Virus record (IMG/VR): IMGVR_UViG_3300045988_175722
Location: 1 to 64,000 of that record
DNA from: a virus
DNA: 64,000 bases
Strand: one strand, 5' to 3'
Part shown: one piece after another, positions 23,819 through 58,163 of the stretch
Layout: every line of letters starts with the position of its first letter
Position numbering within the stretch: position 1 is the first letter of the stretch
The notes under the pieces: generated by a model
What the model was told of the DNA's origin: nothing
The model's input: only the letters and a program-made list of their open reading frames with translations
Databases searched by the model: none
Program-made: the position numbers and the translations under genes

Positions 23819-23852
23819 GCGTCCTCGTTCCCAGCGATTCCATCGCTGGTCC
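23819..23852 (+). repeat. HP32 hairpin element copy 1
   Basis: GCGTCCTCGTTC CCAGCGAT TCC ATCGCTGG TCC. 40 nt after stop 23778. Confidence 0.85.
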
Positions 23853-23860
23853 GCAAAAAC

Positions 23861-23906
23861 ACAATATTCCGCCGAAAATATATACAATATTTCGCCAAAA
23901 ATATAT
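23861..23906 (+). repeat. 23-bp tandem direct repeat upstream of 23941
   Basis: ACAATATTCCGCCGAAAATATAT / ACAATATTTCGCCAAAAATATAT (20/23 identical). Confidence 0.8.
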
Positions 23907-23940
23907 AATAGATTTCTAATTACTTTAAATACAAGGATTT

Positions 23941-24498
23941 ATGGGTAAAGATAAAAGACCTCACAACTATTTGAAGATAGCAGAGGAGAGTGGAGTAGGC
24001 AAGAAGCTGAAAACCTTTCTTGCCGAGTGCAGTGAAGCAAGCGAGAAGGCGAGAGCCTGGGTAGAGAAGCAGGGAGGCGACATCTATTACGAATCACCCG
24101 AAGGCTTTGCCGGAGGTGTATCGATGGTAGAGTTCCCGACTGCTATCAGCAAAGAAGGCTGGAAAAACATCCAGGTTCCTACTAAGGACGGATGGCAGAG
24201 CACCCATCTCTTCGTACCAGAAGAAGATAGTGACCTGGAAAAGGAAATGATGACGCTTCCGGTGGTGAGCGAAACGGCGCTTATAACCATCCTGCAGTTC
24301 AAACCTAAGATGGCGAAGGGCAAGGATGAAAAGGAAGTGCAACTTCCGTTCACCTTTGGCAATGCCACGCCAGCCATCTTCCTCCATCATGGCTTTTTCT
24401 TCACCGATGTTCCCTATGAGAGCATGAGTAATGACTGCCAGCCCATCTCAGAGAAGGAGTTCCTTCGCCGCAGGATGGCAGCCGTGAACGAACGATAA
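23941..24498 (+). CDS. hypothetical protein
   Basis: 185-aa ORF. The antisense ORFs are treated as shadows. Confidence 0.7.
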   Translation: MGKDKRPHNYLKIAEESGVGKKLKTFLAECSEASEKARAWVEKQGGDIYYESPEGFAGGVSMVEFPTAISKEGWKNIQVPTKDGWQSTHLFVPEEDSDLEKEMMTLPVVSETALITILQFKPKMAKGKDEKEVQLPFTFGNATPAIFLHHGFFFTDVPYESMSNDCQPISEKEFLRRRMAAVNER

Positions 24499-24571
24499 TT
24501 TTTCTTCTGAATTGAATATATTTTAACTAATTCAGCCAGCCGTCCGTGACGGATAGCTGGCTTTTTATTTA

Positions 24572-25282
24572 TCATTCGTCATGGCGCAGTTCTTTTGCCA
24601 CCATGCCGTATCCCGCTTGCGGCAAATTACCTCCATCCTGCTGAGAGTTCAATCGACGGGTCAGTTCACCGATGAGCTTCTGCTGGTCGCCTATCTGCTT
24701 TTGCTGCTCGGCTATGATGTCGAGCATGCGGTTAAGCGTAGTCATACTGATGCCATGCCCCATATCTGGAACATGTGCGCCATTTTCTTCTTTAGCTAGA
24801 GCACGAGCACCCACTTCTTCTTCTCTCTCTTTCTTCTTTCCTCTTCCATTCCAATCACTCTCGCCCCCATTTCCAGCGATTCCATCGCTGGTCCACCCCG
24901 GCACCACCGATTTAATCCTATCCACATCGAGCGGGTCACGGAGCGCACGTGTGCCCAGTTTCCGCTTGGCATCATTCCCCAGATAACCGCCATCCGGCTC
25001 AAACTGGTCTCCCGCACCTGGGCACACATACTCCATCTTGCGGCAATCGCCATCCCCCAACGGGCTGGCATCAACATCCACAATAAAAGCTGATAGCGGG
25101 ACGTGAAACGCATTGCAGAAACGCAGCAGCGCAATGGTAGGCAGTGGCGACTTCATCCGTTCCCAACTATCAAGGCAAGTATTACTCGTAGTACCCATGG
25201 CGCGCATCATCTGCTTATTAGTGATGTCCTTATTGGCTTCCATCCATCTGTTCAGGAAGCTGTAGTTATAACAGTACTTCAT
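24572..25282 (-). CDS. HTH transcriptional regulator (candidate repressor) with coiled-coil C-terminus
   Basis: 236 aa. The N-terminal ITNKQMMRAMGTTSNTCLDSWERMKSPLPTIALLRFCNAFHVPLSAFIV fits an XRE-like HTH. C-terminal heptad-like QQKQIGDQQKLIGELTRRL. Divergent from 25454..25948. HP32 copy 2 sits in frame in the linker. Confidence 0.7.
   Translation of the reverse strand: MKYCYNYSFLNRWMEANKDITNKQMMRAMGTTSNTCLDSWERMKSPLPTIALLRFCNAFHVPLSAFIVDVDASPLGDGDCRKMEYVCPGAGDQFEPDGGYLGNDAKRKLGTRALRDPLDVDRIKSVVPGWTSDGIAGNGGESDWNGRGKKKEREEEVGARALAKEENGAHVPDMGHGISMTTLNRMLDIIAEQQKQIGDQQKLIGELTRRLNSQQDGGNLPQAGYGMVAKELRHDE
24862..24893 (+). repeat. HP32 hairpin element copy 2 (inside a minus-strand CDS)
   Basis: CGCCCCCATTT CCAGCGAT TCC ATCGCTGG TC. 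Read on the minus strand it encodes WTSDGIAGN. Confidence 0.85.
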
Positions 25283-25395
25283 ATTTCAACTATATTTTAA
25301 AGATGAATAACTCTAATATGTTCACTGAAAAATCAATTAATATAACTAACCTATGTTAAATTCCCCTAATTTTCGGCAAAAAAATATAGGTAACA

Positions 25396-25427
25396 TTTGG
25401 TAGTTGCAATTTTATTATTTAAATTTG
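25396..25427 (+). promoter_or_regulatory. Bacteroidota-type promoter for 25454..25948
   Basis: TTTG 25396-25399 (extended TTTGGTAGTT), 20 nt, TAAATTTG 25420-25427. Confidence 0.65.
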
Positions 25428-25453
25428 CACCAAAATTAAGAAATAAAATTGAA

Positions 25454-25948
25454 ATGACAAAGGAAATCTTAGAAAAAATATGTAGAAAAAATACTCCATT
25501 AGAGGTAAATGACATCTCGGTGGAGGAAAAGAAGAACTTAGCTGAGTTTTTATCGGTTAAAGGATTCTCTACATCTACATTCTATCTCAGATTTTTTCAG
25601 AAAGGTTTCGATGCCTGGGAAATTCAGGGTATCAACAACTGCAAAAGTCAGTTCTTAGCTATACCGGATGTAGGTAAGCTATTAGCGGAATATGTAGAAA
25701 CCGATGCCCTGGGTAACGAGATTGGCAAAAAGGGCTATCTCGTAGAGCTCGCGCAGAGCAAAGAACCGGGCGTGTTCTATACCTGCTTGAAGAAAGTAAA
25801 CAACGGTCTCTGCATCAAGTTCTTTGCCTACATGGAAGAGAGAGGCATGAGCCGTACCACCGTTATTAAGCGTTTCACCGCTGACGATTGGAAGCCATGG
25901 GAGCAGGAGGGAATAAAAGCACTTTTAAAGGTAAAAGCCTGTGCTTAG
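25454..25948 (+). CDS. hypothetical protein divergent from the HTH regulator
   Basis: The track ORF is trimmed to MTKEILEK (ATG 25454) because the promoter lies inside the longer ORF. 164 aa. Confidence 0.65.
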   Translation: MTKEILEKICRKNTPLEVNDISVEEKKNLAEFLSVKGFSTSTFYLRFFQKGFDAWEIQGINNCKSQFLAIPDVGKLLAEYVETDALGNEIGKKGYLVELAQSKEPGVFYTCLKKVNNGLCIKFFAYMEERGMSRTTVIKRFTADDWKPWEQEGIKALLKVKACA

Positions 25949-25961
25949 TTAAATCCTCTCT

Positions 25962-25993
25962 CACCCCCGTTTCCAGCGATTCTATCGCTGGTT
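25962..25993 (+). repeat. HP32 hairpin element copy 3
   Basis: CACCCCCGTTT CCAGCGAT TCT ATCGCTGG TT. 13 nt after stop 25948. Confidence 0.85.
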
Positions 25994-26030
25994 TAAGAAG
26001 AATGTAACTACAAATGATAGATGTAACTGA

Positions 26031-26720
26031 ATGATAGACATTACTGTCGATTTAGAAACCTGTTCGCTTTCGCCCACCGCAGCGGTGATGAGCATTGCTG
26101 CGGTGGCGTGGAAGCGCTACGGTAAAGAGTCGCCTTTCTTCGATGAAGGCGACGGAGTATTGAGAAATTCCACATATTCTGCACACGTGGACTTGAGAAG
26201 CATGTTCCTTAACGGGTTCACCTTCGACCAGAGCACGGCAGATTGGTGGGCGAAGCAGAGCGACGAGGCAAAAGCTGCCTTGCTCGACAATGACAGCGAC
26301 GAGTCGCCCTGCCAGCCTATAGACGTGATAGTAAATGACCTCTTCGAGTGGATAGAAGACATCAAGAAGAAACTCGGTGATGAAGACCTCTGCCTTTGGG
26401 CGCAGGGTACTGATTTCGACGTGGCTATTCTGAAATATATCTGCTACAAGATGGGCATTGAGTTCAGAGTTAAACATACCCAGTTGAGAGACCACCGCAC
26501 GTTCTATCTCGAACTTGCGAGAATCTTATGGGATGCAGCCGAGCCTAACGAGGAGAAATTCACCCTCGACAAGGCTTACTCCCTGACCACGGACTACAAG
26601 GACATCGCTGATGATGAAGGTGCGGCTCATAACCCGATCTTCGACTGCAAGCGAAGTATCTATAGCACTTGGCAGATGATGAAGAAGATAAGAGAAGAAG
26701 TTTATGCCTCGTCTGTTTGA
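26031..26720 (+). CDS. DEDDh 3'-5' exonuclease (DnaQ-like fold)
   Basis: 229 aa. The three exonuclease motifs appear in the right order: ITVDLET (Exo I D-x-E), WAQGTDFDVAIL (Exo II) and HNPIFD (Exo III H-x4-D). Confidence 0.7.
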   Translation: MIDITVDLETCSLSPTAAVMSIAAVAWKRYGKESPFFDEGDGVLRNSTYSAHVDLRSMFLNGFTFDQSTADWWAKQSDEAKAALLDNDSDESPCQPIDVIVNDLFEWIEDIKKKLGDEDLCLWAQGTDFDVAILKYICYKMGIEFRVKHTQLRDHRTFYLELARILWDAAEPNEEKFTLDKAYSLTTDYKDIADDEGAAHNPIFDCKRSIYSTWQMMKKIREEVYASSV

Positions 26721-27120
26721 TTTGCCCTATATCCCTACCCGGACGAGCATCCATCGTAGGCATAGAAATCTATCCCGATATAAACTGCTGCACCGTTTCG
26801 CCTATACCGAAACGATGAGCGGGCTAAGGGATGATATACCGACCCTGCTATTCTATGCGCCCTTCGCCCTGTTGAAAGATACCTGCGAGTATCTTTGCAG
26901 GATGATGGCAGGCAGCGTGGAAGATATAATCATCACGCCCTCGCATAGCTGCCGCCGCAAGAACGGCAAGATATACTGGAGGCAGGAGGTGCAGATCATC
27001 GGTCTCGATACCAACTTCCTTACGATGGAAAGTCTCTCGCAGATGATAGTACATCGTATGGAAATTATCTGCAACTGCAAGATACGGCGCTATCGCCTGG
27101 AAACATTCTTGAATTTATAA
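26704..27120 (+). CDS. hypothetical protein (uncertain)
   Basis: 138-aa ORF that overlaps the exonuclease end by 17 nt. No motif. Confidence 0.45.
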   Translation: MPRLFDLPYIPTRTSIHRRHRNLSRYKLLHRFAYTETMSGLRDDIPTLLFYAPFALLKDTCEYLCRMMAGSVEDIIITPSHSCRRKNGKIYWRQEVQIIGLDTNFLTMESLSQMIVHRMEIICNCKIRRYRLETFLNL

Positions 27121-27717
27121 AAATATAAAGATATGAAGAAATAAACAAAGATATACTGCATGACATCATGCGCCATCAGAGATACACTACATTTCTGATA
27201 CGTTTTATTTTGTTAGACAACCAAGCCATCGGTTAAAATGGCAGGAAGACCTGACGGGCGATAGGTGGACGCTGGAAAGCTTCACTAATAAGTTAATACC
27301 CCCCCCACCGCAGTCTTGGAACGATAAGTGAAAAGTCTGATTAAAAAGCCTGAGGAATACCTATCGATGCGGTAAGCGGGGCATCCTCGAAATTTGGCGG
27401 TGTCGCCCCGAAGGTCTTCTTTCTTTGACAATATTGATATAAAGAGAATAGGGGAGGCATTCTGGAAACACTCTTATGCAAGGGTAGTGGGAGCAGTAAT
27501 GTCCCATGACTACGCTGCACACTGCATCTTTGCCGGCACTATGGAGAGACGTGATTAGCGTTATGCCGCGTCTTTGCGTTAGAATATTCAGCGGGCGAGT
27601 ACCACAGATTCACAAATGCTCCGACCGCTCGCTCTAGAATATAACCCGGCAAGGTGTAAACACTTGAAGTTTGGCCTACCCTCTGCGCCCCCGTCCCCAG
27701 CGATTCCATCGCTGGTC
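27121..27717 (+). ncRNA. candidate large non-coding RNA or cis element (ORF-free region ending in an HP32 hairpin)
   Basis: No ORF of 60 aa or more on either strand in the track between 27120 and 27780. Not AT-rich, unlike other spacers. Contains a C8 run (27299-27306). Ends with HP32 copy 4, as protein-coding units do. Confidence 0.3.
27685..27717 (+). repeat. HP32 hairpin element copy 4
   Basis: GCGCCCCCGTCC CCAGCGAT TCC ATCGCTGG TC. 63 nt upstream of ATG 27780. Confidence 0.85.
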
Positions 27718-27779
27718 AATGGTCAAGAGTGGTGCCTTCCCTGTCTCTTTTAACTCTATAAATACTCTTGATGTAAGAT

Positions 27780-30700
27780 ATGTTATTCCATCCTATATTG
27801 AATCAGCTAAGCAACATCGATATGGCTTTTCTCGTAAAACCAGCCGATGAGCAGCGCATCGAAGGGCAGACGGCTTGTTTCTGTCCGCTCTGCCAGAAGG
27901 AGGAGGCAGACGATGGCGAGCAGAGCAAAGCAGAGCAGACCCCACATCTCATTGTCTATAATAATGAGCGTGGCGGTATGTATAATGGTGTAGGGGTGGA
28001 AGGCAATACCAAAGCAGAGCATGGAGCCTTACGTTGGATGTGTACCAAGACTGGAAAGTATGGCTACGGAGCCTTAGAACTCTATGCCGCCATGCGTAAG
28101 CTGCCAATGCACGGAGCCAGCCTGTTGCGCCTTTGTCACGACCTCGTGGTAAAGGTGTATGGCGACAACGAAAAGACAAGAGCCAAATGGCCAATGCTCT
28201 TTGCCAGGATGGACTATCGCACCATCGCGAACCACACGATAGCGACATTTTCTTTTATCCCAAAGACAGACTTCAATCCCCAGGAGCTCGCAGCCCTGGG
28301 GTGCGAAGTCACAATGATAAAAGGAATTCCGCAATATGGTTTTGGCAAGGATTTCAACACTACGATGCTGAATGATGATTTCCGCATCTATGCCGTAGAT
28401 CAAGTAACCCTGCCCAATGTAGTGAGAAACGGGCAGCAGGTGAGCGAAGTGATTTACGGCACACCCTGGAACCCGTTATTCGTCTGCTTCGCTACAGATG
28501 TGATAGCGCCTCAAGGAAGTTGCGGATGTTTCTTCCGTCCAGCCATGCAGCAAGACCCAATCGTCTTCTCCACCTGCGAGGATCACAGTGTGAGGAAGGT
28601 GAGCAAGTGGCTCATGGGCGACAAGGTTTTTACTTATGCCATGGATCATCGGAGTAACAACTCTACTGCCGTTCACTCGGCAATAGAAAAGCTACAACCG
28701 GACGAGCCTTATACCGATAAGAAAGAAATATGGGTGGAGAACGAAACTAAGGATGGCGAACCGAAAGGCACCTTTCATGCAGAACAGAAACCCATAGAAG
28801 TTGGTGACATCAAGGCTCAGAACATCGTGTTCTGCAGAACATCCGAAGACGCATTAAGCGTTTATTACGCCATGCGTTCCCTGCGTCAGGATAAGGCGCA
28901 GGATAATCATTTTCAGAAATACTGCTGGTATCACGTAGCCTTCTCGCTTGGCAGAAGAAACTTCTGGTATATCGAGCGTGGGCAGTGGAGGCAGGAAAAG
29001 CTAGACTTCAATGCCGTGCAGTATCAGAAGATGAAGCGATTTGCCGAGAGGGTTATCATGCTTTACCCTAACGACATCGCCAGCCAAAGGGATTGCGGAG
29101 CCATCGCAACTAAGTATTGCGATATTTGCTATGCTACATTGCCCGATGGCTTTAGAAGTAGATATAATCAAAGGTGGAACTGGTTGTATGGTTGCTCACC
29201 ACGAAGTGTGAGAGATTATCTGATATGCTACCACATGGATGATGCCGACAACTTCAAGTTCGACCACGATATAAGATTGCCGTTATATTCGAGATTACGG
29301 GGAGCCAACAACACAGATCCATTCGAGATTGAATATCCCCGAGACCCGAGAAGTGGCAAACCTAAACCGCCTACCTGCAAGGTATCGCCTACCAAGGTGT
29401 GGCTCTTTATGACCTGCCGTGGTTATTACAGAATGATAGACCCTGAGAGTACTGACCTCGTAGGTCAGTATATCCATTTGGATAGATGTTTTGTGGAATA
29501 CATCGACCAGAAGAGTGTCATCCAGGCAACGAAAGTTCAACTTCTGCAGTTTATCGAACAGAGTTGGCGGTACAACGACAAGGAGCGTAAGATGATGTCG
29601 GATTGCGCTAACCTGATAGACAAGAATTTCAGCGAGAAATCGGCTGGAGGCTTACAGAGCATGGTGATAGATTTCACCGAAAGCTTCGATGCACATACGG
29701 AATATTTCTTCTTCCGAAATGTAGCGTTAAAGATTACGCCCGAAGCCATTACACCAGTCAGCTATGAGAAGCTGAATTTCTTCATCCCATCCCTGGCCAA
29801 GAAGCCGTATGATTTCACGATGAGGGTATTCAATCCTCCTTTTGTTATCAGCGAGAGTCAGGAGTATAAGGATAAGGTAGCAGCCATCGCCCAAGAGGAA
29901 GCGCAGGTTAACGAGGACGGTTCACCGGTTTTCTCAAGAGAGGAAATTGACCAGAAGAAGAAAGACCTCAAAGATTGGGCACAGACTTTCCGTTGGCAGG
30001 TGAATTGGCAAGGCAAGCAGGAAAAAGAGCTTTGGCCTGTGCTGAGAGTGATACGCGGTTGCTGCAATGTGCAGTGGAGACTGGAGCAGGATAGTATTCG
30101 CAACAAGAAGCCGATGCCCCCTGAAGCCATCGCCGACATCAACTCTCATTTCGCCAACATGATTTCCTGCTTGGGAAGAATCTGTTACCGCTCATGGGCT
30201 GACATGCAGAGTATCTGCCCCTATCTCCTCGAAGATGCGGTGGAGGACGAGAAGCAGGCTAGTGGCGGTTCGGGCAAATCATTGATGATAAACCTCGTGG
30301 TAGGTTCAGCGGTAAATGTACTGCGTGTCGATATGAAAGAGTTTGTAACGATTGCCGACGCAAAGTTTGCTCTTTCTGATTTACTGATATATCCGGGTAA
30401 GTTTAGAGTCATACACTGGGAAGACAAGCCTTCGGGTTTCCCGATGAAGTACTTCTATATTAAGGTAACGGCAGGTGCCAAGGTTGAGCGAAAGTTCGGC
30501 GACCCGATTGTATTCAAACTGGAGGAATCGCCATTGAACGTGATAACTAGTAACTATCAGCTAAGTGATAGTGAAGATAGTACGCTCAGACGTTTCCCCT
30601 TGGTGTCATTATCCGACAGATTTTGCTGTGAAAACCCAATGAAACATAAGTTGGCGCGCTCTCCTAAAGAGGTAATGAAGAATCTTGCCTCCGACCCTGA

Positions 30701-31460
30701 AAAGCTGAATGAGCGAGATCGCAATCAGGCGATATATATCTGTGCCCTTGCCGTGCAGTTCATCATGCGCTATCATACCTTTGCGGTTGCTCCTCAGAAG
30801 AATGTTCAGCGAAGATTGATGGTAAGAGAGCTGACCGAAAACACGGTGAACTACTTTGAGTGGTTCTTCAGCCGTAATGAGGTATATTCAGCACCTATCT
30901 GTGCAGATGAAATGTTTAATGAGTTCATGCGAGATTGGGCTGATGCCAGCGAGGGTAAGAGTAAGGAATACAGCCGAGCCACCTTCAAGAAGAAAATCAG
31001 GAAGTATTGCGAGAATATGAATATCGACTGCAATCCGGAGAATCTTCTGATTGGCGAGGATAACAAGCGCCATGGCTGTTTCAAGCTCAGAGCTTGGATA
31101 ACGGAGGAGTACTTCGTAGGACGGGAATGGGAGAATGATGAAAGTGTAGAGCCGAAACATATCCGCAGGGTAAAAACCAGCAAGCACGTCTATTTCTTCT
31201 TCCGTAAGGGTAAGGATCACATTCCAGAAAGCTACGATGAGTTAAAACGCATCGCCAAGGAATACGTAGAAGGTCCCGACCCATTACCATATCGTGATGA
31301 TGATGGCAACATCGTCTCCCTCACCCCAGAAGAGGAAGAACGCTGGAAGGCATTCACCTCCCGCAAGCAGGGCAGAAGGCAAGCCATGCAAAACGGCAGC
31401 GATAGCAACAACGCAGCAGAAATGGTAGGCGAAATAGATAAGAGCAATTTGCCATTCTAG
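27780..31460 (+). CDS. primase-helicase (CHC2-like zinc finger N-terminus, P-loop NTPase C-terminal half)
   Basis: 1226 aa. CFCPLCQKEE...TPHLIVYN...WMCTKTGKYGYGALELY resembles a DnaG-type zinc finger. Walker A is ASGGSGKSLMINLV near residue 820, as in P4/D5-type SF3 helicases. Ends in ...DKSNLPF. Confidence 0.7.
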   Translation: MLFHPILNQLSNIDMAFLVKPADEQRIEGQTACFCPLCQKEEADDGEQSKAEQTPHLIVYNNERGGMYNGVGVEGNTKAEHGALRWMCTKTGKYGYGALELYAAMRKLPMHGASLLRLCHDLVVKVYGDNEKTRAKWPMLFARMDYRTIANHTIATFSFIPKTDFNPQELAALGCEVTMIKGIPQYGFGKDFNTTMLNDDFRIYAVDQVTLPNVVRNGQQVSEVIYGTPWNPLFVCFATDVIAPQGSCGCFFRPAMQQDPIVFSTCEDHSVRKVSKWLMGDKVFTYAMDHRSNNSTAVHSAIEKLQPDEPYTDKKEIWVENETKDGEPKGTFHAEQKPIEVGDIKAQNIVFCRTSEDALSVYYAMRSLRQDKAQDNHFQKYCWYHVAFSLGRRNFWYIERGQWRQEKLDFNAVQYQKMKRFAERVIMLYPNDIASQRDCGAIATKYCDICYATLPDGFRSRYNQRWNWLYGCSPRSVRDYLICYHMDDADNFKFDHDIRLPLYSRLRGANNTDPFEIEYPRDPRSGKPKPPTCKVSPTKVWLFMTCRGYYRMIDPESTDLVGQYIHLDRCFVEYIDQKSVIQATKVQLLQFIEQSWRYNDKERKMMSDCANLIDKNFSEKSAGGLQSMVIDFTESFDAHTEYFFFRNVALKITPEAITPVSYEKLNFFIPSLAKKPYDFTMRVFNPPFVISESQEYKDKVAAIAQEEAQVNEDGSPVFSREEIDQKKKDLKDWAQTFRWQVNWQGKQEKELWPVLRVIRGCCNVQWRLEQDSIRNKKPMPPEAIADINSHFANMISCLGRICYRSWADMQSICPYLLEDAVEDEKQASGGSGKSLMINLVVGSAVNVLRVDMKEFVTIADAKFALSDLLIYPGKFRVIHWEDKPSGFPMKYFYIKVTAGAKVERKFGDPIVFKLEESPLNVITSNYQLSDSEDSTLRRFPLVSLSDRFCCENPMKHKLARSPKEVMKNLASDPEKLNERDRNQAIYICALAVQFIMRYHTFAVAPQKNVQRRLMVRELTENTVNYFEWFFSRNEVYSAPICADEMFNEFMRDWADASEGKSKEYSRATFKKKIRKYCENMNIDCNPENLLIGEDNKRHGCFKLRAWITEEYFVGREWENDESVEPKHIRRVKTSKHVYFFFRKGKDHIPESYDELKRIAKEYVEGPDPLPYRDDDGNIVSLTPEEEERWKAFTSRKQGRRQAMQNGSDSNNAAEMVGEIDKSNLPF

Positions 31461-31490
31461 CCCCCGTTCCCAGCGATTCCATCGCTGGTC
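31459..31490 (+). repeat. HP32 hairpin element copy 5
   Basis: AGCCCCCGTTC CCAGCGAT TCC ATCGCTGG TC. It overlaps the TAG stop of the primase-helicase and is identical to copy 8. Confidence 0.9.
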
Positions 31491-31505
31491 TAAAATAAAA
31501 AAGTT

Positions 31506-31763
31506 ATGGCAAAGAAAGAAGAAACAAAGAAGAAGAAAGGCGTAAGAGTAGCCAATCGTCAAGCATGGGTAGATACCTTCGTATATCTCTGCCCTTATCA
31601 CCGAGGCGGAACAGGCCCCGGTGAATATTGCGAGGAACCCGACGGAACCCGCACCAACTGCACAGGCAGATGCACCTACACGGGCAGCGGAGCCTGTTCG
31701 CATGTAACGCAGTTCTTCAAAACATATCTCAAGTTCGTAAACAAGGAAATTGAATTTTTATAA
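31506..31763 (+). CDS. small Cys-rich protein
   Basis: 85 aa. Basic N-terminus and 6 Cys (CPYH...C...C..RC...C). Confidence 0.6.
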   Translation: MAKKEETKKKKGVRVANRQAWVDTFVYLCPYHRGGTGPGEYCEEPDGTRTNCTGRCTYTGSGACSHVTQFFKTYLKFVNKEIEFL

Positions 31764-31774: not shown

Positions 31775-32383
31775 ATGGCAAGTTATACAGGAAACGTTAA
31801 TCTCATGGCACTGAATGGTGCCAAAGTTCTAGTTGGTCTCGATGAGAAGAATGCGCAGCGTCCTTACATCTGTATTCCACTCGATGTTAACGAAATTAGG
31901 ATGGAAGCATCCAAAAATGATCCCAACAAGCAGATGGCCAAGTTGAGAATCAGCATTTGGCCATTCAACGAGCAGTACAAGGCAAAGGTACGCCAGAGCC
32001 TTGCCGAGCGTGGCGACAGCAATGTGAGTGTGCCTACCCACGAAATGCAGCTCTCGTTCTCCGCCGAGTACGTCAAGGCGGTAGCCAAGGCGTTCCCCAA
32101 GCTTGTAGAGCAGGTGAAGGAAGCCAACAAGGAAAGAGACCCAGAAATCGTAAATCAGGATTTCAATGATGAGAATACTCATCTCTTCAAGGCAATCCGC
32201 ACCCGCATGAATAAACGCATTGCGCAGCTCTATCAACCACAAGTCACCCCTCAGCAGACGTATCCACAGCAAGCCTACGGCACGGCTGGCAACGCCACCG
32301 CATACGTGCCACCAGCAGATGGAGCAAATGATTATACCTCAATGCCAGGTTACAATGACCCGAACAGCGACCTGCCATTCTAA
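31775..32383 (+). CDS. putative ssDNA-binding/replication accessory protein with SSB-like C-terminal tip
   Basis: 202 aa. Q/P/Y-rich disordered tail ending in ...DPNSDLPF, compared with the bacterial SSB tip D-D-D-I/L-P-F. Located between the primase-helicase and the clamp. Confidence 0.4.
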   Translation: MASYTGNVNLMALNGAKVLVGLDEKNAQRPYICIPLDVNEIRMEASKNDPNKQMAKLRISIWPFNEQYKAKVRQSLAERGDSNVSVPTHEMQLSFSAEYVKAVAKAFPKLVEQVKEANKERDPEIVNQDFNDENTHLFKAIRTRMNKRIAQLYQPQVTPQQTYPQQAYGTAGNATAYVPPADGANDYTSMPGYNDPNSDLPF

Positions 32384-32405: not shown

Positions 32406-32438
32406 GCGCCCCAGTTCCCAGCGATTCTATCGCCGGTC
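32406..32438 (+). repeat. HP32 hairpin element copy 6
   Basis: GCGCCCCAGTTC CCAGCGAT TCT ATCGCCGG TC. One A.C mismatch in the stem. Confidence 0.8.
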
Positions 32439-32465: not shown

Positions 32466-33662
32466 ATGAAAATACAAGCACAATCATCATTGACACTTCG
32501 CAAAGCCCTACAGAAAGCCGCGAAGTGCATTGATAGTAAGAGTGCCATCGTCATCATGACCCAGGTGCTTCTTACCCAACGCAAATCAGATGGAAAGTTC
32601 TTTTTTGTATCAGCCACCACTGATTCAGAACTTACCATCCCTGCCCCTCTCAGCATCGTAGAGGGCAGTTTCAAGGAAGATGCAGTTTTACCGATAGGCA
32701 ATTTGCTCTCCCTTCTTTCCACCCTTCCTGCCGACTGTGTAGTCACCATGGAGCTATCTCAGGACAAGGAGCACAACATGAACATCGAGTACTGTACCCA
32801 AAACGGTGACAACGTGAAGAAAGGAACCGTAAGCCTGGTTTATTTCAGCGCCGAGGATTTCACCCGTGCCGTGCAGCCCGAGAATATCAGTCTCCATATA
32901 TCTTTGCCAATGGCAACCTTTGGCAATGTGCTCGCTCATGCAGGAAAATTCGTTGGAGACTCAGAGCTTAGACCTATCATGAACTGCCTCTGTATCGATG
33001 TATCAGAGGATAGGAGCGACGTTAAGTTCGTCGCATCAAATGGGCATGTCCTTATCAAGCTCACCCATACCAACGACCCTGAGACAGGAGGCAGCGATTT
33101 CTTCCGTGAGGGAACACCAGGCAAAATCCTGGTTCATAGCAGTTATTTCAAGACCTTGGCAATTTTTGATGATTGTGAGGATGTTGATATTGAGTGCAAC
33201 GAGAACATGGTGCGCTTTACATCGGGTGATATTACCTTCGTATGCAAGAAGGTAGAAGGTAAATATCCTAATTACGATTCTGTTATCCCTAAAAATAACC
33301 CTCATACGGTTATCTTGGATAAGCGAGAGTTGGCAAGCGTCGTAAAACGTGTAGCTCTCTTTTCTTCCGAAAGTAGTAATCTTATCGTGTTGAAGAAGAA
33401 CGGCATGTTCCTGGATATTACTGCCCAGGATCAGGACTTCAATATGTCGGCAACCGACCAGGTGCTTATCAATGACGGAACGTGCCCGGAAGGGTACCGA
33501 ATCGGTTTCAAGGCAAGCAGCTTGCTTGATTCTCTTGCACCTATCCCAAGCAATGAAGTCTGCCTGCATCTGGGCGACGTTAGTCGTGCGGGTACGATTA
33601 CCGCCAATGAGTCTTCGCCACTTGCATTGGCCCTGCTCATGCCGATGATTATGAATGATTAA
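32466..33662 (+). CDS. dnaN: DNA polymerase III beta subunit (sliding clamp) homologue
   Basis: 398 aa. The N-terminus LTLRKALQKAAKCIDSKSAIVIMTQVLLTQ...FFFVSATTDSELTI follows the DnaN pattern. Three-domain length and an LLMPMIM C-terminal end, like the MPM(R/K)L ends of bacterial clamps. Confidence 0.75.
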   Translation: MKIQAQSSLTLRKALQKAAKCIDSKSAIVIMTQVLLTQRKSDGKFFFVSATTDSELTIPAPLSIVEGSFKEDAVLPIGNLLSLLSTLPADCVVTMELSQDKEHNMNIEYCTQNGDNVKKGTVSLVYFSAEDFTRAVQPENISLHISLPMATFGNVLAHAGKFVGDSELRPIMNCLCIDVSEDRSDVKFVASNGHVLIKLTHTNDPETGGSDFFREGTPGKILVHSSYFKTLAIFDDCEDVDIECNENMVRFTSGDITFVCKKVEGKYPNYDSVIPKNNPHTVILDKRELASVVKRVALFSSESSNLIVLKKNGMFLDITAQDQDFNMSATDQVLINDGTCPEGYRIGFKASSLLDSLAPIPSNEVCLHLGDVSRAGTITANESSPLALALLMPMIMND

Positions 33663-36632: not shown

Positions 36633-37727
36633 ATGAACACAAGACAACAAAATATACTTCGCTCTCTCTTGAAGAAGTACAAATATAAGAGCGTAAGCAA
36701 CGTGGTTCGTCAGGCACTTGAAATCAACTTCGAGAATTTCCTGCAGAAGACGGAACCCCTCTACGTTATCCCTCGCATCGCTTCCTGCTACGCCGATGAG
36801 CAGGATAAGCAAAAACTGAATGGCATCATTTATAAGGAGTGGCTTAAAGACGTGGTGGAGAAAGCCTGGGTAGCGCCACTTAATGCCTACACCGAGGAAT
36901 ACGGCGAGCGCATCGTACTCTCAGCCATCTACTACCTCATCGACAATGGCCTATGGGAGTCCTACGAGGGTCGCCTGGCCCTCGATGTCCAGGAAGATAA
37001 TTACTACGACAAACTGGGAGATATGCCTTCCGCCATCGCCATGGTCCAGGAGCAGCAAGCCGAGGAGAAAAAGGCAGAAGAAAAGAAAGCCGCCGAGCAA
37101 GCCGCCACCCAGCAGCGAGCCGATGCCTCGTCACGTCCCCCTCTCGCATCCGTCCCCAGCGATTCCATCGCTGGTCAAAAAGAAGCCGCTCCCGGCTATA
37201 CCCTAACTGCCGAAGAAGCCGCAACCCTCATCGCTACCACTTCCGATACCTGCTCTCAGCTAAAGCAGAATATTGAGCGCTTGTTTGATTTCATCCATAC
37301 CGCCACTGATGCCGATACCTTGCGTCAGAAGCTTGCCACTCTTCAGCATCAGCTAGAAGATCAGAAAGCCGAGCATCAGAAAGAAGTTACCGCCATGCAG
37401 CAGAAAATCGATGATGCCTATACTACAGCGAATAAGGCAAGCGATTATATCTCAACTCTGCGCCAGAAAGCCCAGGAAGCCCAGAAGCAATACGATGAGC
37501 TGAATGCCAAATACAAGAAAGCCCTGGACGAGCGTGATGATGCTGACAAGGAGTTGGAAACCTGCAAGAAGCTCCTCGAAGAGGAAGCCAATCGTGAGCA
37601 GCTTCCCAAGAAGAAAATCATCCCTTACAGCGTATTGGATGCTGTTCCTCTTTTGGGCAAGGGAGTAATGACGGGCTTGGTACCCGTCCTCGCTAAGTAC
37701 AACATCGTGATAGATTACAACAAGTAG
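36633..37727 (+). CDS. hypothetical coiled-coil protein carrying an in-frame HP32 insertion
   Basis: 364 aa. Low-complexity AEEKKAEEKKAAEQAA linker, and VPSDSIAGQ encoded by HP32 copy 7. The C-terminal half is heptad-rich. Confidence 0.7.
   Translation: MNTRQQNILRSLLKKYKYKSVSNVVRQALEINFENFLQKTEPLYVIPRIASCYADEQDKQKLNGIIYKEWLKDVVEKAWVAPLNAYTEEYGERIVLSAIYYLIDNGLWESYEGRLALDVQEDNYYDKLGDMPSAIAMVQEQQAEEKKAEEKKAAEQAATQQRADASSRPPLASVPSDSIAGQKEAAPGYTLTAEEAATLIATTSDTCSQLKQNIERLFDFIHTATDADTLRQKLATLQHQLEDQKAEHQKEVTAMQQKIDDAYTTANKASDYISTLRQKAQEAQKQYDELNAKYKKALDERDDADKELETCKKLLEEEANREQLPKKKIIPYSVLDAVPLLGKGVMTGLVPVLAKYNIVIDYNK
37145..37176 (+). repeat. HP32 hairpin element copy 7 (inside a + strand CDS)
   Basis: CGCATCCGTCC CCAGCGAT TCC ATCGCTGG TC. 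Confidence 0.85.
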
Positions 37728-48919: not shown

Positions 48920-49501
48920 ATGTTTGAGATATACGTTAAAATGAAGAGAAAGAAGTGCTGGAAACTCGCTATAGAGGTTCCCAACGCTTGGGGTGGAATG
49001 CCTCACCTTTGGATGTATTTAGAAAAGAAATACCTTCCATCTTACGTACCGGTAGGAGTTGATGGGAAACCGCTGGATATGGAATGGGTGAAGGAAAAAC
49101 AGGCAAAAGGTGAATATGCAAGCCGTTGGGTCTATGCTTCATCCAAAAAGGAGATTGAGGACCTACAGAAAGATTTCCGCCTAACTTATGAGGAAATGAT
49201 GGTATTCAGATCTACTTTTGATTTTGCAAAGGTTCTAGGCGAAGATATACCAGTTTACCTTGAATGCTTGAAGGTTGTCGCTGATGAATGTGGAGGCATA
49301 TATCCACAACAATACGAAAAGCTGAGAGCCTTTATTAAGGTTCATAGCATAAATGACATAGAGGCAATCGCCTTCAACCAGACAAGCGTAAACTGTGCCT
49401 ATGATTTCTTTGGCAACAGATATAATGCGCCAGTAGATAACTTTTGGGACTGTATGTGTCCAAAGGATTTTTACAACAACCTCAGAAAAGAAACGAAATG
49501 A
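48920..49501 (+). CDS. hypothetical protein
   Basis: 193-aa ORF. Confidence 0.7.
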   Translation: MFEIYVKMKRKKCWKLAIEVPNAWGGMPHLWMYLEKKYLPSYVPVGVDGKPLDMEWVKEKQAKGEYASRWVYASSKKEIEDLQKDFRLTYEEMMVFRSTFDFAKVLGEDIPVYLECLKVVADECGGIYPQQYEKLRAFIKVHSINDIEAIAFNQTSVNCAYDFFGNRYNAPVDNFWDCMCPKDFYNNLRKETK

Positions 49502-50004
49502 ATGCAAGAGCGTTTTTCGATCTGGTGACTAATATAAATAGTAAGATTATGAAAAGAAATTTTAAGTATATGATTAAAAAAGCTGTCGTTAAGCTGAATG
49601 ACGCATTAGAACTTCTCTTGTCGGCCACCCTAATCTATGCTTTAGAAAAACTGGCGATTATCGTTCTCTCTCCTAACCCACCAACGCAAGAGGTGCAAGC
49701 CCGCTTCATTTTTGCTCTAATAGTAGTCTTTCTCGACATCATTTATTATTTCATTATCGATTTCTTCACGATAAACTGGAGAAGATGGAGAAGAAGAAGG
49801 CTTGCGAAGTTAAAGGCGCAGAAAGATACAGAAAAGTCTCGAACAGCAGCAGAGAATAGTAAGCTAGCGGCTGCGATTATCCAGGCAGAAATAGAGAAGG
49901 GCATGGCGGGTTTTTGGGGAGGTATAGAAATTCCGCAAAGGCGGATGAGTAAGGAAGGTATCAATAAGACTGAAACGTTAAAAGATAAAAAGAAAAAACA
50001 ATAA
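49498..50004 (+). CDS. membrane protein
   Basis: Trimmed to MNARAFF (ATG 49498), which gives an ATGA overlap with the previous stop. 168 aa with two TM helices and an RRWRRRRL patch. Confidence 0.65.
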   Translation: MNARAFFDLVTNINSKIMKRNFKYMIKKAVVKLNDALELLLSATLIYALEKLAIIVLSPNPPTQEVQARFIFALIVVFLDIIYYFIIDFFTINWRRWRRRRLAKLKAQKDTEKSRTAAENSKLAAAIIQAEIEKGMAGFWGGIEIPQRRMSKEGINKTETLKDKKKKQ

Positions 50005-50011
50005 GATTACT

Positions 50012-50043
50012 AGCCCCCGTTCCCAGCGATTCCATCGCTGGTC
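50012..50043 (+). repeat. HP32 hairpin element copy 8
   Basis: AGCCCCCGTTC CCAGCGAT TCC ATCGCTGG TC. 8 nt after stop 50004. Confidence 0.9.
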
Positions 50044-53246: not shown

Positions 53247-53252
53247 TGTTGC

Positions 53253-53576: not shown

Positions 53577-53588
53577 AATTTCGCAGAT

Positions 53589-54359: not shown

Positions 54360-54379
54360 CCTCTATAAAACTGTTTTTA

Positions 54380-54977: not shown

Positions 54978-55010
54978 AAAGTCTATAAACTATTAACTAT
55001 AAATTATTAA

Positions 55011-55238: not shown

Positions 55239-56016
55239 CGGCTGGTTCCTCCTTCATTTCTTTAGCCTGCTGACCAGCCTCCTTCTCTTCCATCACCTCT
55301 TCCATATAGTCGAAGTAATCAGGAGCTTTTTCCGGAGTAGCATTCAGACTCTCCTCATCGGCTATCTGCTGCATATCCTTCACCGTAAGACCGTACTTGC
55401 GAGCCATCTTGCGCTTATACTCATCGGTATAGTTGATGCGGTCGTGCTTCACGATGCTAACATCCTGCGTAATGGCAATGCGGCTCATATCCGGCATCTC
55501 ATCCGTAGCATCCTTATCCTCCACGAAGTTGCCATATACATTAGCCAGGGCTTGCATACCCTTATCCACCGCTCGGTCGTTGTTCTGCTGTTTGCCGGTA
55601 CGAATCAGCCATTCAGCGCTGCTCAGATACATCGCCTTGTGACGAGGGCTTTCATCGGTCTGGAAGAAACGGATGATGTGGTTGCATACCGCCACATCAT
55701 TATTCAGTTCCGTAACCGTTCGGGGTTTGATATTTCCTTCCTCGTCAATATCAATATGCAGCGCCATCACCATCTCCTGCGCCTCTTTGTTGCCCTGTCC
55801 TGCCTGGTTCACGAAGAGCGTATAATCGCGCCGTGCGATATTGCGGCAGGTGGTACGCGGGTCTATATCGTTGTTCTGCACCCATCGCTTGTAGAACTCG
55901 GCACAAATCTGCATGCGGTACCGCTGTTCCAGTTTGGGGAACATCGTCTCCATGCTGAGACCATTGGATAGCCACTTATCTATCCTCTGCAGGGTGTTTT
56001 GCGTTAATTGGCTCAT
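55231..56016 (-). CDS. hypothetical protein, first gene of the packaging/methylase operon (small terminase is possible but unsupported)
   Basis: 261-aa ORF. The + strand ORFs on top of it are treated as shadows. Confidence 0.7.
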   Translation of the reverse strand: MSQLTQNTLQRIDKWLSNGLSMETMFPKLEQRYRMQICAEFYKRWVQNNDIDPRTTCRNIARRDYTLFVNQAGQGNKEAQEMVMALHIDIDEEGNIKPRTVTELNNDVAVCNHIIRFFQTDESPRHKAMYLSSAEWLIRTGKQQNNDRAVDKGMQALANVYGNFVEDKDATDEMPDMSRIAITQDVSIVKHDRINYTDEYKRKMARKYGLTVKDMQQIADEESLNATPEKAPDYFDYMEEVMEEKEAGQQAKEMKEEPADE

Positions 56017-56056
56017 TTTGCTTTGCAGTGTTTAATGTTATTTTTATATCTGCCCA

Positions 56057-56064
56057 CAAAATTA
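56057..56064 (-). promoter_or_regulatory. -7 box TAATTTTG for the minus-strand operon
   Basis: The + strand CAAAATTA at 56057-56064 is TAATTTTG on the minus strand, 40 nt upstream of ATG 56016. Confidence 0.45.
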
Positions 56065-56101
56065 CGAAATCACCCCTAAATGATTGGGACAAGGGGGATG
56101 C

Positions 56102-56189
56102 AGTTGATAGTTGATAGTTTATAGTTAACAGCATCCTTGCTCAAAGGCGCTAGCTTCTATAAACTATAAACTGTAAACTATCAACTATA
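56102..56189. repeat. large imperfect palindrome built from short tandem repeats (GTTGATAG / TATAAACTA)
   Basis: The left arm AGTTGATAGTTGATAGTTTATAGTTAAC (56102-56129) is mirrored by TTCTATAAACTATAAACTGTAAACTATCAACTAT (56156-56189). An outer GGGACAA (56086-92) / TTGTCCC (56193-99) pair encloses it. Confidence 0.8.
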
Positions 56190-56220
56190 TTTTTGTCCCC
56201 GTCTTAGGGCAAAAATATTC

Positions 56221-56228
56221 TACCTTTG
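56221..56228 (+). promoter_or_regulatory. -7 box TACCTTTG upstream of the holin gene
   Basis: Exact TAnnTTTG 47 nt before ATG 56275. TTTG at 56192-56195 has a non-canonical 25-nt spacing. Confidence 0.45.
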
Positions 56229-56274
56229 TATCGTATTAAAGACAACATAGGATAACATTAAAAAGAAAAAAGAA

Positions 56275-56901
56275 ATGCAAAGTTTAATTCCAACCCTTAC
56301 CAGGTTTCTTGCAGCCATCATTGGCTTGTTGTGGTGTACACTGGAACCATCCCTTAACTACATCGCCGTATGCTTCTTCGCCCTTATCTGCGACTGCTAC
56401 ACGGCTTGGCGGTGCAACTGCCGCATCTATTCCCGCTATCGGGAGGCTATCAAGAAAGACCCTCGATGCAAAATCGACGGGAAACTGAAATCTAAGAAAA
56501 TGGCAAAGATGGTGAAAGATTTCTCCGTCCTCATCCTTGCGATATTCTTGGCCACGATGGTAGATACCGTGATACTCGATTTTCAGAACCCTTTCCATCT
56601 CGCCAACTATCTTGCTGCTATCTATTGTGGTGTGCAGCTCGTAAGTATTCTCGAAAACGAGAGTACCTGTAATGGGGCACCCTGGGCAAGAGTGATGCAG
56701 AAGATTGTGGCCGATAAAACCGAAAGGCACTTCAACGTGAAGCTGAAAGACTTGATGAAGGAAGAAGAGGAGGACAGCGAGAAAGAAGAGGTAAAGGATA
56801 AAGGTAAGGCAGATACAGATAATGCAGCCAAGCCGGATAATGGTGCAGATAAAGATGAGTGGATTCCGTCGAAATTAGGTGGAGATGCTTATGATATATA
56901 G
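56275..56901 (+). CDS. holin (phage_holin_4 / toxin-secretion holin-like)
   Basis: 208 aa with four hydrophobic helices. The signature VQLVSILENESTCNGAPW matches the E-x-x-S-I-x-E-N...G..P motif of that holin family. Highly charged C-terminal tail. Confidence 0.6.
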   Translation: MQSLIPTLTRFLAAIIGLLWCTLEPSLNYIAVCFFALICDCYTAWRCNCRIYSRYREAIKKDPRCKIDGKLKSKKMAKMVKDFSVLILAIFLATMVDTVILDFQNPFHLANYLAAIYCGVQLVSILENESTCNGAPWARVMQKIVADKTERHFNVKLKDLMKEEEEDSEKEEVKDKGKADTDNAAKPDNGADKDEWIPSKLGGDAYDI

Positions 56902-56963
56902 TGCCAACAACTCTTAATTTCTGTACGCCATCAGTTAATAATGTGTTAAAATCCTTTTGAATT

Positions 56964-57566
56964 ATGACAATATCAAATGTTTTGGAACACTGGGCTACGA
57001 TATACAAGCCCTTATCCCATGACCCGACAAGCAAGAAGCTGGAGGATCAGAGTTTCTTTCGCATTCGTGATATTGATGAGGAAAATATCTTTTCCCGAAA
57101 CGCCAATATCATTCACTCTCCCTGTATGCTCTATCGTGTAGTTAACTCCGGAGAGCTAAAATCGGATAAGCAAGCCCTGATTACCTATCAGGTCTGCTTC
57201 CTTACCCGACTGAAAGATTCCTCTGCTACGTTGGGCAGATATGATGGCAGCAAATTGCAGGCTGCATCGGATGATCTGATGGAGTATTGCGAAGACCTCG
57301 CCTCTTATCTCACTCAGCTTCGCCGCACGGGTATCTGTCCTATCACTGGCAGAAACTTCAAGACGGAAGAGCCTAAGTTGGGCATAGAGTTATCATCCGT
57401 CGATATAGAGAGTTTTGCCTATGGTGTAAACCCTCTTTTCCGTGGTCCGAGCTGGCTCCTCGCTGATTGCTATTGGCAGACCATCCGTCCGCTCTATAAC
57501 TTCCAATGCGGGAAGGAGCAGAAATATATCATTCCTGCATCAACAGAAGACGGAAAGGAGGGATAA
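56964..57566 (+). CDS. hypothetical protein upstream of the tape measure gene
   Basis: 200-aa ORF. Confidence 0.7.
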   Translation: MTISNVLEHWATIYKPLSHDPTSKKLEDQSFFRIRDIDEENIFSRNANIIHSPCMLYRVVNSGELKSDKQALITYQVCFLTRLKDSSATLGRYDGSKLQAASDDLMEYCEDLASYLTQLRRTGICPITGRNFKTEEPKLGIELSSVDIESFAYGVNPLFRGPSWLLADCYWQTIRPLYNFQCGKEQKYIIPASTEDGKEG

Positions 57567-57569
57567 GCT

Positions 57570-58124
57570 ATGCCTATCAGAACCCAACCCATCAAGTCGC
57601 CTTTTGCCCCCTTAAAAGAGGTGGCAGGTGTATATCTGAAGCAAGCCCTTCTTGATATAGAAGTTAACTTCAATACCCAGAAGATTTATCCGGTAGAGGT
57701 ATATCGTGGCTACGAGAAGGTGAATAAATATCGTGAGGAACACGGCATGTGGTACTCTACGGGTGAAGGCAAGAAATCCTTTGAGGGTACGGTATATCAG
57801 GCTGATGAAAAGACGGGTAATCTGATGGTAGGAATCCGTTATAACGATTATCTCCGCTATGTGGATATTGGTGTAGGTTTGACGGGTGATCCTCGTGACC
57901 CTGCAGCCCATATCACTGCCGATAAGGTGGACCGCTCGAAAAAAGCCAAGTTCAAAACCCGCTATATCGGCAAGTGGGATAGAAGGGCAGGTAAATCTCA
58001 CCGTCCTGCCATCATGCGAACCGTCCGCAGGTTGAAAACGAGATACGAAAACCATCTTGCCGATTACTACGGCTATCAAGGCTTGTTACAGATAATGAAC
58101 GCCCTGGAAGACAAAGGCGATTAA
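57570..58124 (+). CDS. hypothetical protein upstream of the tape measure gene
   Basis: 184-aa ORF that starts 3 nt after the previous stop. Confidence 0.7.
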   Translation: MPIRTQPIKSPFAPLKEVAGVYLKQALLDIEVNFNTQKIYPVEVYRGYEKVNKYREEHGMWYSTGEGKKSFEGTVYQADEKTGNLMVGIRYNDYLRYVDIGVGLTGDPRDPAAHITADKVDRSKKAKFKTRYIGKWDRRAGKSHRPAIMRTVRRLKTRYENHLADYYGYQGLLQIMNALEDKGD

Positions 58125-58130
58125 CCCATC

Positions 58131-58163
58131 TCGCCCCCGTTCCCGGTGATTCCATCGCCGGTC
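58131..58163 (+). repeat. HP32 hairpin element copy 9 (compensated stem variant)
   Basis: TCGCCCCCGTTC CCGGTGAT TCC ATCGCCGG TC. 6 nt after stop 58124. Confidence 0.85.

Follow-up and report, generated by a model that had tools for sequence, protein, structure and literature searches.

A 31-nt hairpin element occurs nine times, always on the + strand, in a 64,000-nt stretch of DNA from an uncultured virus (IMG/VR record IMGVR_UViG_3300045988_175722, positions 1 to 64,000; the whole stretch is called the window below). The same element is present in chromosomes of the Segatella (Prevotella) copri complex. Judged by where its sequence occurs, it appears to belong to the S. copri lineage and to be common to chromosome and phage. 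The element is a unit of 3' untranslated regions (3' UTRs) and intercistronic spacers, and its orientation tracks transcription of the upstream gene. With about even confidence, we read it as a hairpin repeat that is shared by host and phage and would act in sense RNA, similar to the repetitive extragenic palindromic (REP) sequences and bacterial interspersed mosaic elements (BIMEs) and to the Rickettsia palindromic elements (RPEs).

Nine copies of one paired element

The window contains nine copies of GCCNCCGTTCC-CAGCGAT-TCC-ATCGCTG-GTC, where chance would give 0.00-0.02 (Table 1). A search with the core at up to two mismatches returned eight copies, a search with the 31-mer at up to three mismatches also returned eight, and their union was nine. 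Neither a minus-strand copy nor a further + copy was found in the window with up to 8 mismatches. These searches of both strands agree with the original prediction, made from the letters of the window, that nine copies share one polarity. Its coordinates led to the right copies, but the 31-mer starts lie 1-2 nt further downstream. The predicted 8-bp stem and 3-nt loop (TCC or TCT) were also confirmed. Copies are named here by the start of the 31-mer. Copies 31460 and 50013, first described as identical, are so over 34 nt. Copy 58133 carries the compensated A>G and T>C change that had been noticed, plus one further U.G wobble, and complete folding is possible on the + strand alone. In copy 32408 the T>C half is unmatched, as first read, which gives an A.C mismatch on the + strand.

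Six copies lie just after + strand stop codons, as had been observed, with gaps between stop codon and 31-mer of 42, 14, -1, 24, 8, and 8 nt. Copy 31460 leaves only 15 nt to the next ATG at 31506 and is therefore intercistronic. Copy 27687 does close the region free of open reading frames (ORFs) at 27121-27779, and copy 58133 ends 38 nt ahead of the start of a giant ORF at 58202. Seven of the nine copies fall within the 13-kb replication module, where spacers are short. A GGTAAAAAGATAAAAAG array at 23781-23797 precedes copy 23821, as at host copies. In agreement with the first reading, no T tract follows any of the nine window copies. No canonical + strand terminator was found in the intergenic spacers of the replication module.

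Two copies are in frame inside genes, and both translations given at the outset were correct: VPSDSIAGQ in the + strand gene 36633-37727, and WTSDGIAGN in the minus-strand gene 24572-25282. The second copy (24863) reads TSDGIAGNGG within a low-complexity linker. Gene 24572-25282 had been called a regulator. It is a real conserved gene with 605 homologues, but the word regulator rests on a helix-turn-helix (HTH)-like N-terminus judged by eye. Its product gave no significant Pfam domain.

Conservation of the element was profiled over 204 distinct contexts pooled from related viral contigs. It jumps at position 0 and drops after position 30, giving a 31-nt core with sharp boundaries. All 31 positions are about 90-100% conserved, including loop bases T18 and C19 and the unpaired 5' part GCCNCCGTTC, and the variable exceptions are the fourth base and the third loop base (C/T/A). 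This conservation implies a sequence-specific partner. A weaker C/T-rich stretch of about 9 nt lies ahead of the core. The element is about 31 nt long, or 40-50 nt when this weak 5' extension is counted. Read from sequence, the 31-mer contains no stop codon in any of the six frames.

Pairing is strongly retained. Across 122 distinct variants, 97.3% of cells pair. Three stem pairs are changed on both sides, in 11 cells, and all 11 are Watson-Crick; shuffles gave 0.7, and 0 of 500 shuffles reached the observed value. The stem is maintained by compensatory change. A protein-DNA operator is not rescued by a double half-site change, so this covariation argues for a nucleic-acid hairpin. Three other identities were considered and set aside, solitary CRISPR-repeat mimics among them. 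The motif GCTGGTC looks like E. coli Chi, yet neither the hairpin nor the number of copies suits a Chi-like site. A minus-strand G-quadruplex was dropped because the 3' C run is not retained in phage copies.

Host chromosomes, viral relatives, and copies inside genes

The exact 25-mer CCGTTCCCAGCGATTCYATCGCTGG was found in 116 stretches of bacterial assemblies, almost all from the S. copri complex, and the complete chromosomes HDD04 and HDD05 carry it. About 105 of these 116 stretches have no similarity to the phage, and the proposal that the signal is phage-specific did not survive this result. The host copies are flanked by genes such as trpD, trpC, trpA, H+-pyrophosphatase, LptD, RhaA, ALAD, peptidyl-tRNA hydrolase (Pth), and two-component systems. 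They group into 28 sites, 23 of them intergenic. At 22 of the 23 intergenic sites, the element is in the sense of the upstream gene. The downstream gene is in sense at 13 and antisense at 10. It is this bias toward the upstream gene, together with the unbiased downstream gene, that makes the element a unit of 3' UTRs and intercistronic spacers. The single polarity in the window had been attributed to a constraint on one DNA strand. A simpler cause is that the neighboring genes are nearly all on the + strand and the element follows the sense of the upstream gene. Host chromosomes also contain inverted pairs, 50-95 nt apart and in both arrangements, between convergent genes. Since these convergent pairs lie within 100 nt, replication direction cannot explain the orientation. 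The same host sites keep their copies across S. copri clades.

Host copies are part of a mosaic with the order stop codon, (GGTAAAAR)n, GAGCCTTAACCCCTTTGC, element, CCCC. GGTAAAAR arrays were rejected as a general part of phage copies because the window has just one array. In at least 7 of 33 convergent host contexts, a hairpin-plus-T terminator lies downstream of the element, compared with 0 of 36 co-directional contexts. Spacers of S. copri (L122 4400-4600, L196, L147, and L226 in our locus numbering) contain GGTAAAAR arrays together with TTTTTACC arrays on the other side. Together the arrays supply an A arm and a T arm to long terminator hairpins that are bidirectional, AAAGGTAAAAAGAGCCTAGC...GCTAGGCTCTTTTTACCTTT. 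These hairpins are a repeated family themselves, and the element is often inserted beside their left arm.

The phage is much richer in the element than the host. By exact 25-mers, there are 2 in the 64-kb window and 7 loci in the 3.86 Mb of HDD04, an enrichment of about 17-fold. When all nine window copies are compared with the ten from HDD04, the ratio rises to about 54-fold, with the host count as a lower bound. The HDD04 loci were found by the exact 25-mer, and both seven loci and ten copies are therefore minimum numbers. A separate observation concerns the complete S. copri G8 chromosome (NZ_CP146523.1, 3088001-3096000; L206), where about 90% of 8 kb is similar to IMG/VR loci of this phage group. 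The similarity does not extend to this window. Based on this match, a relative may be integrated in a chromosome.

Among viral contigs, an exact 22-mer of the element was located in over 114 stretches from IMG/VR, the contigs being mostly of 60-110 kb. Within 1 Mb of related viral DNA, there are 243-255 copies, and no locus has both orientations. Fourteen contigs were seen through several loci, and their 103 copies are all orientation-consistent per contig. Viral copies form about 32 site clusters and, like those of the host, follow genes in sense. No inverted pairs of the element were found in phage contigs. A search of related contigs for strand bias had been suggested at the start, and these phage relatives keep a single orientation.

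Comparison with relatives revealed presence and absence of the element as a block. In a syntenic relative (L231), which is 69% identical in nucleotides from the putative polymerase gene to the clamp gene, 16.6 kb contain no copy. Ahead of the clamp gene, L231 and the window differ by a clean 51-nt indel, made up of 8 nt, the 31-mer, and 12 nt, with conserved flanks. After the putative polymerase gene, L231 has a GGTAAAAA-type stretch in place of the element. Among close relatives, some spacers lack the element and others contain a different module. Both L231 and distant protein homologues support the insertion-like behavior that had been suspected. No consistent target-site duplication was found at the nine copies or at the indels, and TA..TA flanks copy 31460 only. 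At shared sites the element is more conserved than its flanks, an estimate that is biased because the loci were fetched by exact matches.

Copies inside genes provided a further comparison. In the 364-aa product of 36633-37727, all 120 best homologues (75-100% identity) keep PSDSIAG with at most 2 changes, and the surrounding linker is full of indels. Homologues of this protein at 65% identity or below lack the motif, and L231 has at most a 15/31 remnant at the site. Orthologue alignment, advised earlier as a check for an indel, thus showed distant homologues without the segment and close ones with it. The antisense copy 24863 is intact in 72 of 120 homologues of 24572-25282 and decayed in the other 48. 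Sense copies in three different phage proteins all read the frame APVPSDSIAG. Antisense copies in a phage gene and a host mobile-element protein read TSDGIA(G/R)NGG, and one host protein reads the element as PPFPAIPSLV. Inside genes, only linker-compatible reading frames of the element survive, and the sense in-frame copy 37146 is probably under purifying selection. Intragenic clusters 11 and 13, in an approximately 670-aa protein, were rejected; one is an over-extended ORF artefact and the other a weak decayed match. In a relative (L062), the small protein after ParA has an N-terminal extension with an in-frame hairpin copy, and the window version does not.

Transcription, resemblance to known repeats, and rival explanations

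Transcription start sites of S. copri HDD04 are available from differential RNA sequencing (dRNA-seq; Table S1A of bioRxiv 10.1101/2024.04.05.588293). The table coordinates correspond to NZ_CP152484.1 within 2-3 nt, as judged from P4D_01036 (1131312-1131500 in the table, ORF 1131310-1131498). The ten copies seen in HDD04 are 335012+, 1131011-, 1824295-, 1824379+, 1831000+, 1943607-, 2169430+, 2737276+, 2737370-, and 3855259+. HDD04 copy 335012 lies between trpD and trpC, and no start is mapped within 334600-335399. It follows that trpC is reached by read-through and that the element is no efficient terminator there. Start 1824471 lies 62 nt past one element and start 1831048 about 15 nt past another. 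For the remaining HDD04 copies, no starts were found in the 100-nt bins searched in the part of the table examined, with the 3.855-Mb copy uncertain. A transcription start at a fixed offset from the hairpin, as envisaged by the original prediction, was not seen among the ten HDD04 copies in the published start sites. Its hairpin promoter or priming signal of the phage N4 type also fails to match the host copies, whose orientation tracks the upstream gene (22 of 23) and not the downstream gene (13 vs 10). A canonical intrinsic terminator was rejected because no T run follows the nine phage copies and a C run follows host copies. From the trpD-trpC copy, we infer that the element is transcribed through. 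Taken with the orientation of the host copies and the terminators downstream of them, it is neither a promoter nor a canonical terminator.

The S. copri promoter boxes are TAnnTTTCA and AAAnnTTTGG, and the HDD04 transcriptome paper is silent on this repeat (bioRxiv 10.1101/2024.04.05.588293). Gene P4D_01036, which encodes 62 aa (L148 3310-3498), lies 270 nt from a host copy in an apparent mobile element, downstream of a CHC2-type primase. Its change ranks among the largest in the differential-expression table, with about 140 vs about 20000 counts (bioRxiv 10.1101/2024.04.05.588293).

The element is closest to REP/BIME sequences and, inside genes, to RPEs, but it fails strict membership of both. 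Both parallels had been drawn from the start, and as resemblances they point to the right neighborhood. The element shares with REP, BIME, and paired REP (REPIN) sequences a GC-rich imperfect palindrome of 20-40 nt with an asymmetric conserved flank. Like them, it stands after genes and between cistrons, with transcription through it inferred for the trpD-trpC copy. Host copies either stand alone or, where genes converge, form close inverted pairs, and they belong to a mosaic that includes further repeated modules. By analogy, it is likely to affect the stability of upstream mRNA. In contrast to REP sequences, it lacks GTAG at its 5' foot, where the flank is GCCNCCGTTC. A gene for a REP-associated tyrosine transposase (RAYT) was not found among the 78 window ORFs or the listed host-flanking families. 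About ten copies were seen per 3.9 Mb, a lower bound, compared with hundreds for REP families. In addition, some copies lie inside coding sequence, the element is densest in a phage genome, and the taxon is Bacteroidota. RPEs are palindromic repeats that sit in frame in genes, encode a short peptide in a tolerant region, and also occur in non-coding DNA. They are about 100-150 nt long and belong to Rickettsia, whereas the element measures 31-50 nt and belongs to Segatella. Furthermore, it is mostly intergenic, has an orientation tied to the upstream gene, and is shared with a phage.

Other known systems are less similar. The gp71 stoperators of L5 and the cluster A mycobacteriophages are also dispersed, near-identical sites in one orientation, in short spacers near stops of a temperate phage. 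However, each is an asymmetric 13-bp double-stranded site that lacks a hairpin, and none is known from the host chromosome, whereas the element is paired and host-borne. The N4 hairpin promoters are small stem-loops with a 3-nt loop on one strand upstream of genes. N4 has three of them, in its early region, read by the virion RNA polymerase; the element follows genes, occurs in host operons, and has no starts at a fixed offset. The PeSL cassettes of T4-type phages are short conserved intergenic stem-loops, co-oriented with genes, at places of variable gene content. PeSLs contain a recognizable early promoter and are known only from phages, whereas the element has no promoter motif, and the S. 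copri -7 box TAnnTTTCA is absent. A difference from miniature inverted-repeat transposable elements is that no consistent target-site duplication flanks the element copies or indels.

In the reading that we favor, a sequence-specific hairpin would form in sense RNA downstream of genes. It could block 3'-to-5' exonucleases, or it could be where processing or protein binding takes place. By analogy with transcribed REPs in E. coli, it would set the stability of the upstream cistron. The phage would have recruited this host repeat and multiplied it around its replication genes.

Several observations weigh against this reading. The RNA-level role is drawn from position and orientation only. Single-sided stem changes give 14 G.U on the + strand and 11 A.C, which does not indicate the folding strand. 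The loop and the 5' flank are conserved beyond the needs of a bare exonuclease barrier. Phage copy 24863 is antisense to its gene, and so are 4 of the 28 host site clusters. The host copy number is low for a REP family, with ten HDD04 copies as a lower bound. The conservation at shared sites carries the bias of exact-match fetching, and the unbiased support comes from the comparison of protein homologues. Finally, HDD04 has a primary start at 1831048, about 15 nt after an element, with a 7-nt leader and no canonical -7 box. This start serves gene P4D_01691 (L202 7000-7055 corresponds to HDD04 ~1831000-1831055), the copy beside it is a variant, CCAAGCGAT..ATCGCTTGG, and the case is the sole one of its kind among the HDD04 copies.

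Five other explanations were ranked by confidence, in the order selfish element, terminator or pause site, double-stranded operator or centromere, recombination linker, and N4-type promoter. The selfish explanation, which we consider unlikely yet the best of the five, proposes a functionless miniature element moved as a single-stranded DNA hairpin by a host HUH/Y1 enzyme of the RAYT or IS200/IS605 type. Its orientation would be biased either by the way it inserts or because harmful orientations are purged. The presence or absence of the block between relatives agrees with this proposal, as do the in-frame linker copies, which genes of phage and host carry in several frames and in either orientation. 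The lack of stops in six frames, the decay of the antisense intragenic copy in 48 of 120 homologues, and the REPIN-like inverted host pairs also fit, and the conserved single-stranded 5' flank at the hairpin foot resembles REP/IS608 guide sequences. However, no Y1/HUH transposase was recognized among the 78 window ORFs or among the 25 listed families of 80 host-flanking proteins, and neither a target-site duplication nor GTAG is present. The sense intragenic copy is invariant in 120 diverged homologues amid freely varying surroundings, host copies are kept at the same sites across S. copri clades, and the phage is enriched at least 17-fold despite genome-size pressure. We consider it improbable that the element is a terminator or pause site of a non-canonical, perhaps factor-dependent kind that lacks a U tract and is used by host and phage. 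The sense position right after stop codons, the stable GC-rich hairpin, and the lack of canonical + strand terminators in the replication-module spacers would suit it. Elsewhere, hairpins of conserved sequence that lack a U tail have been put forward as terminator candidates, the mycobacterial TRIT motif among them, and we count them in its favor. It is contradicted by copies inside operons, such as the trpD-trpC copy without a start site and the 15-nt gap at 31490-31506, by the sense copy within a conserved gene, and by the canonical terminators that follow the element in convergent host contexts.

A double-stranded binding site for a stoperator-like phage repressor, a partition protein (a dispersed centromere, N15-like), or a nucleoid protein would account for dispersed, single-orientation, near-stop, and highly conserved sites, which resemble L5 stoperators. 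The window encodes ParA, a Rep3-like initiator, and HTH proteins, and one copy lies inside an HTH-like gene. We regard this explanation as quite improbable, given that all 11 double changes are Watson-Crick with pairing restored, that many strains have copies beside core host genes independently of the phage, and that host orientation follows the upstream gene. The element could also be a short conserved linker where phage modules swap by recombination. Similarity does break at the element: the proportion of locus pairs similar on one side only is 0.41 there, compared with 0.06-0.33 at points shifted by 400-900 nt, and some sites have another module in that spacer. This excess is confounded since gene 3' ends, linkers, and spacers vary most anyway. 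Furthermore, 31 nt is short for homologous recombination, host copies and covariation are left unexplained, and the linker is very improbable. We would hardly expect a hairpin promoter or priming signal on single-stranded DNA, of the N4 virion RNA polymerase type or as a primase loading site, and we place it last. Its stem and loop dimensions are like those of N4 early promoters, with a purine as the loop center of the template strand (GGA). Conservation stops sharply at the 3' end, copies are 15-98 nt upstream of + genes, and one host copy has a start about 15 nt downstream. Against this, the downstream host gene is antisense in 10 of 23 clusters, convergent pairs are common, and copies occur at housekeeping host genes. 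The other HDD04 copies have no start at a comparable offset in the examined part of the table, and no RNA polymerase family match, giant or otherwise, was recognized in the window, with about 40 kb of the genome lying outside it.

A more specific proposal extends the reading of a shared hairpin in sense RNA, and we offer it tentatively as an unlikely one. The hairpin would be recognized by a dedicated sequence-specific factor, encoded by S. copri or the phage, and this factor would be an RNA-binding protein or else a single-strand nuclease or transposase. By amplifying a rare signal of host 3' UTRs, the phage would have connected the transcripts of its replication module to a host pathway, and the unit would insert in frame without a transposase of its own. 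Hfq and ProQ are not known from Bacteroidota.

Gene setting and significance

The window encodes a replication module (Table 1), and DNA methyltransferases, Cro/C1-type HTH proteins, and a holin are also encoded in it. No tRNA or tmRNA was found in the window, no Rfam family reached the gathering threshold, and BLAST against known phages and plasmids returned a single uninformative 533-bp match. The presence of ParA, a small downstream ORF, and the Rep3-like initiator (19449-22634) suggests plasmid-style maintenance. The source replicon is an S. copri phage of about 100 kb that may be a phage-plasmid.

Table 1. Copies of the hairpin element and selected genes in the 64,000-nt window
Feature	Position	Strand	Description
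Copy 1	23821..23851	+	sequence GTCCTCGTTCCCAGCGATTCCATCGCTGGTC; 42 nt past stop of 23476-23778; 89 nt ahead of ATG 23941
Copy 2	24863..24893	+	antisense, in frame within minus-strand gene 24572-25282
Copy 3	25963..25993	+	loop TCT; 14 nt past stop of 25397-25948; 37 nt ahead of exonuclease gene 26031-26720
Copy 4	27687..27717	+	3' end of 659-nt ORF-free stretch 27121-27779; 62 nt ahead of 1226-aa gene
Copy 5	31460..31490	+	consensus sequence; first G is last base of TAG stop of 27780-31460
Copy 6	32408..32438	+	A.C stem mismatch; 24 nt past stop of 31775-32383; 27 nt ahead of clamp gene 32466-33662
Copy 7	37146..37176	+	sense, in frame within 36633-37727; reads (A)SVPSDSIAGQ in hypervariable linker
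Copy 8	50013..50043	+	consensus sequence; 8 nt past stop of 49444-50004, final gene of long + block
Copy 9	58133..58163	+	CCGGTGAT..ATCGCCGG; compensated, one U.G wobble; 8 nt past stop of 57570-58124
ParA	19449-20342
Rep3-like initiator	21177-22634
Exonuclease	26031-26720
1226-aa protein	27780-31460		no Pfam or PDB sequence match
Beta-clamp	32466-33662

Several neighboring features were observed. Two direct repeats of about 23 nt, ACAATATTyCGCCrAAAATATATA, occupy 23861-23908 between copy 23821 and gene 23941, and the Rep3-like gene lies about 1.2 kb upstream of them. L008, L044, and L077 have a related single unit, and the repeats could be iterons or operators. The ORF-free stretch 27121-27779 has a fold z-score of -1.97 and is present in relatives (site cluster 1). 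A search of 27050-27800 gave no Rfam match even at E<=1. The stretch could be an origin or an unclassified RNA. The 1226-aa protein, set between the exonuclease and the beta-clamp, matches only PHROG 28855, of unknown function, and may be a very divergent replicative polymerase. This protein and the 202-aa protein (31775-32383) both end in ..(N/D)LPF, with the coding sequence CCATTCTAA conserved in L231. From its sequence, the shared end looks like a candidate C-terminal clamp-binding motif. A + ORF runs from 58202 past the window end without a stop, over more than 1933 codons, and was missing from the ORF list because its reading frame leaves the window. The DNA past copy 58133 is thus this giant + ORF and not a region of small minus-strand ORFs. 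Its product is Ala- and Gln-rich with long coiled-coil-like stretches and may be a tape-measure or other giant virion protein.

The sequence of the element was not found in the searchable literature, which also held nothing relevant on REP elements in P. copri. Herein, an apparent phage signal is found to be a repeat of the host lineage, and its reading as a promoter is not supported. S. copri is a major human gut species with few known phages, and the element ties an uncultured group of phages or phage-plasmids of about 100 kb to it. Sharing between a Bacteroidota host and its phage, a much higher density in the phage, and a single genome-wide orientation there are unusual. Such high conservation, together with the enrichment in the phage and the copies in frame inside genes, points to a specific partner and to a mode of spread, both new to Bacteroidota. 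With ten HDD04 copies and published RNA-seq, the RNA-level hypothesis can be checked without new wet work. If the hairpin were the site of a dedicated factor, it would be a new post-transcriptional signal shared by host and phage in Bacteroidota, and, used as a sequence tag, the element would identify the host to which an uncultured phage belongs.

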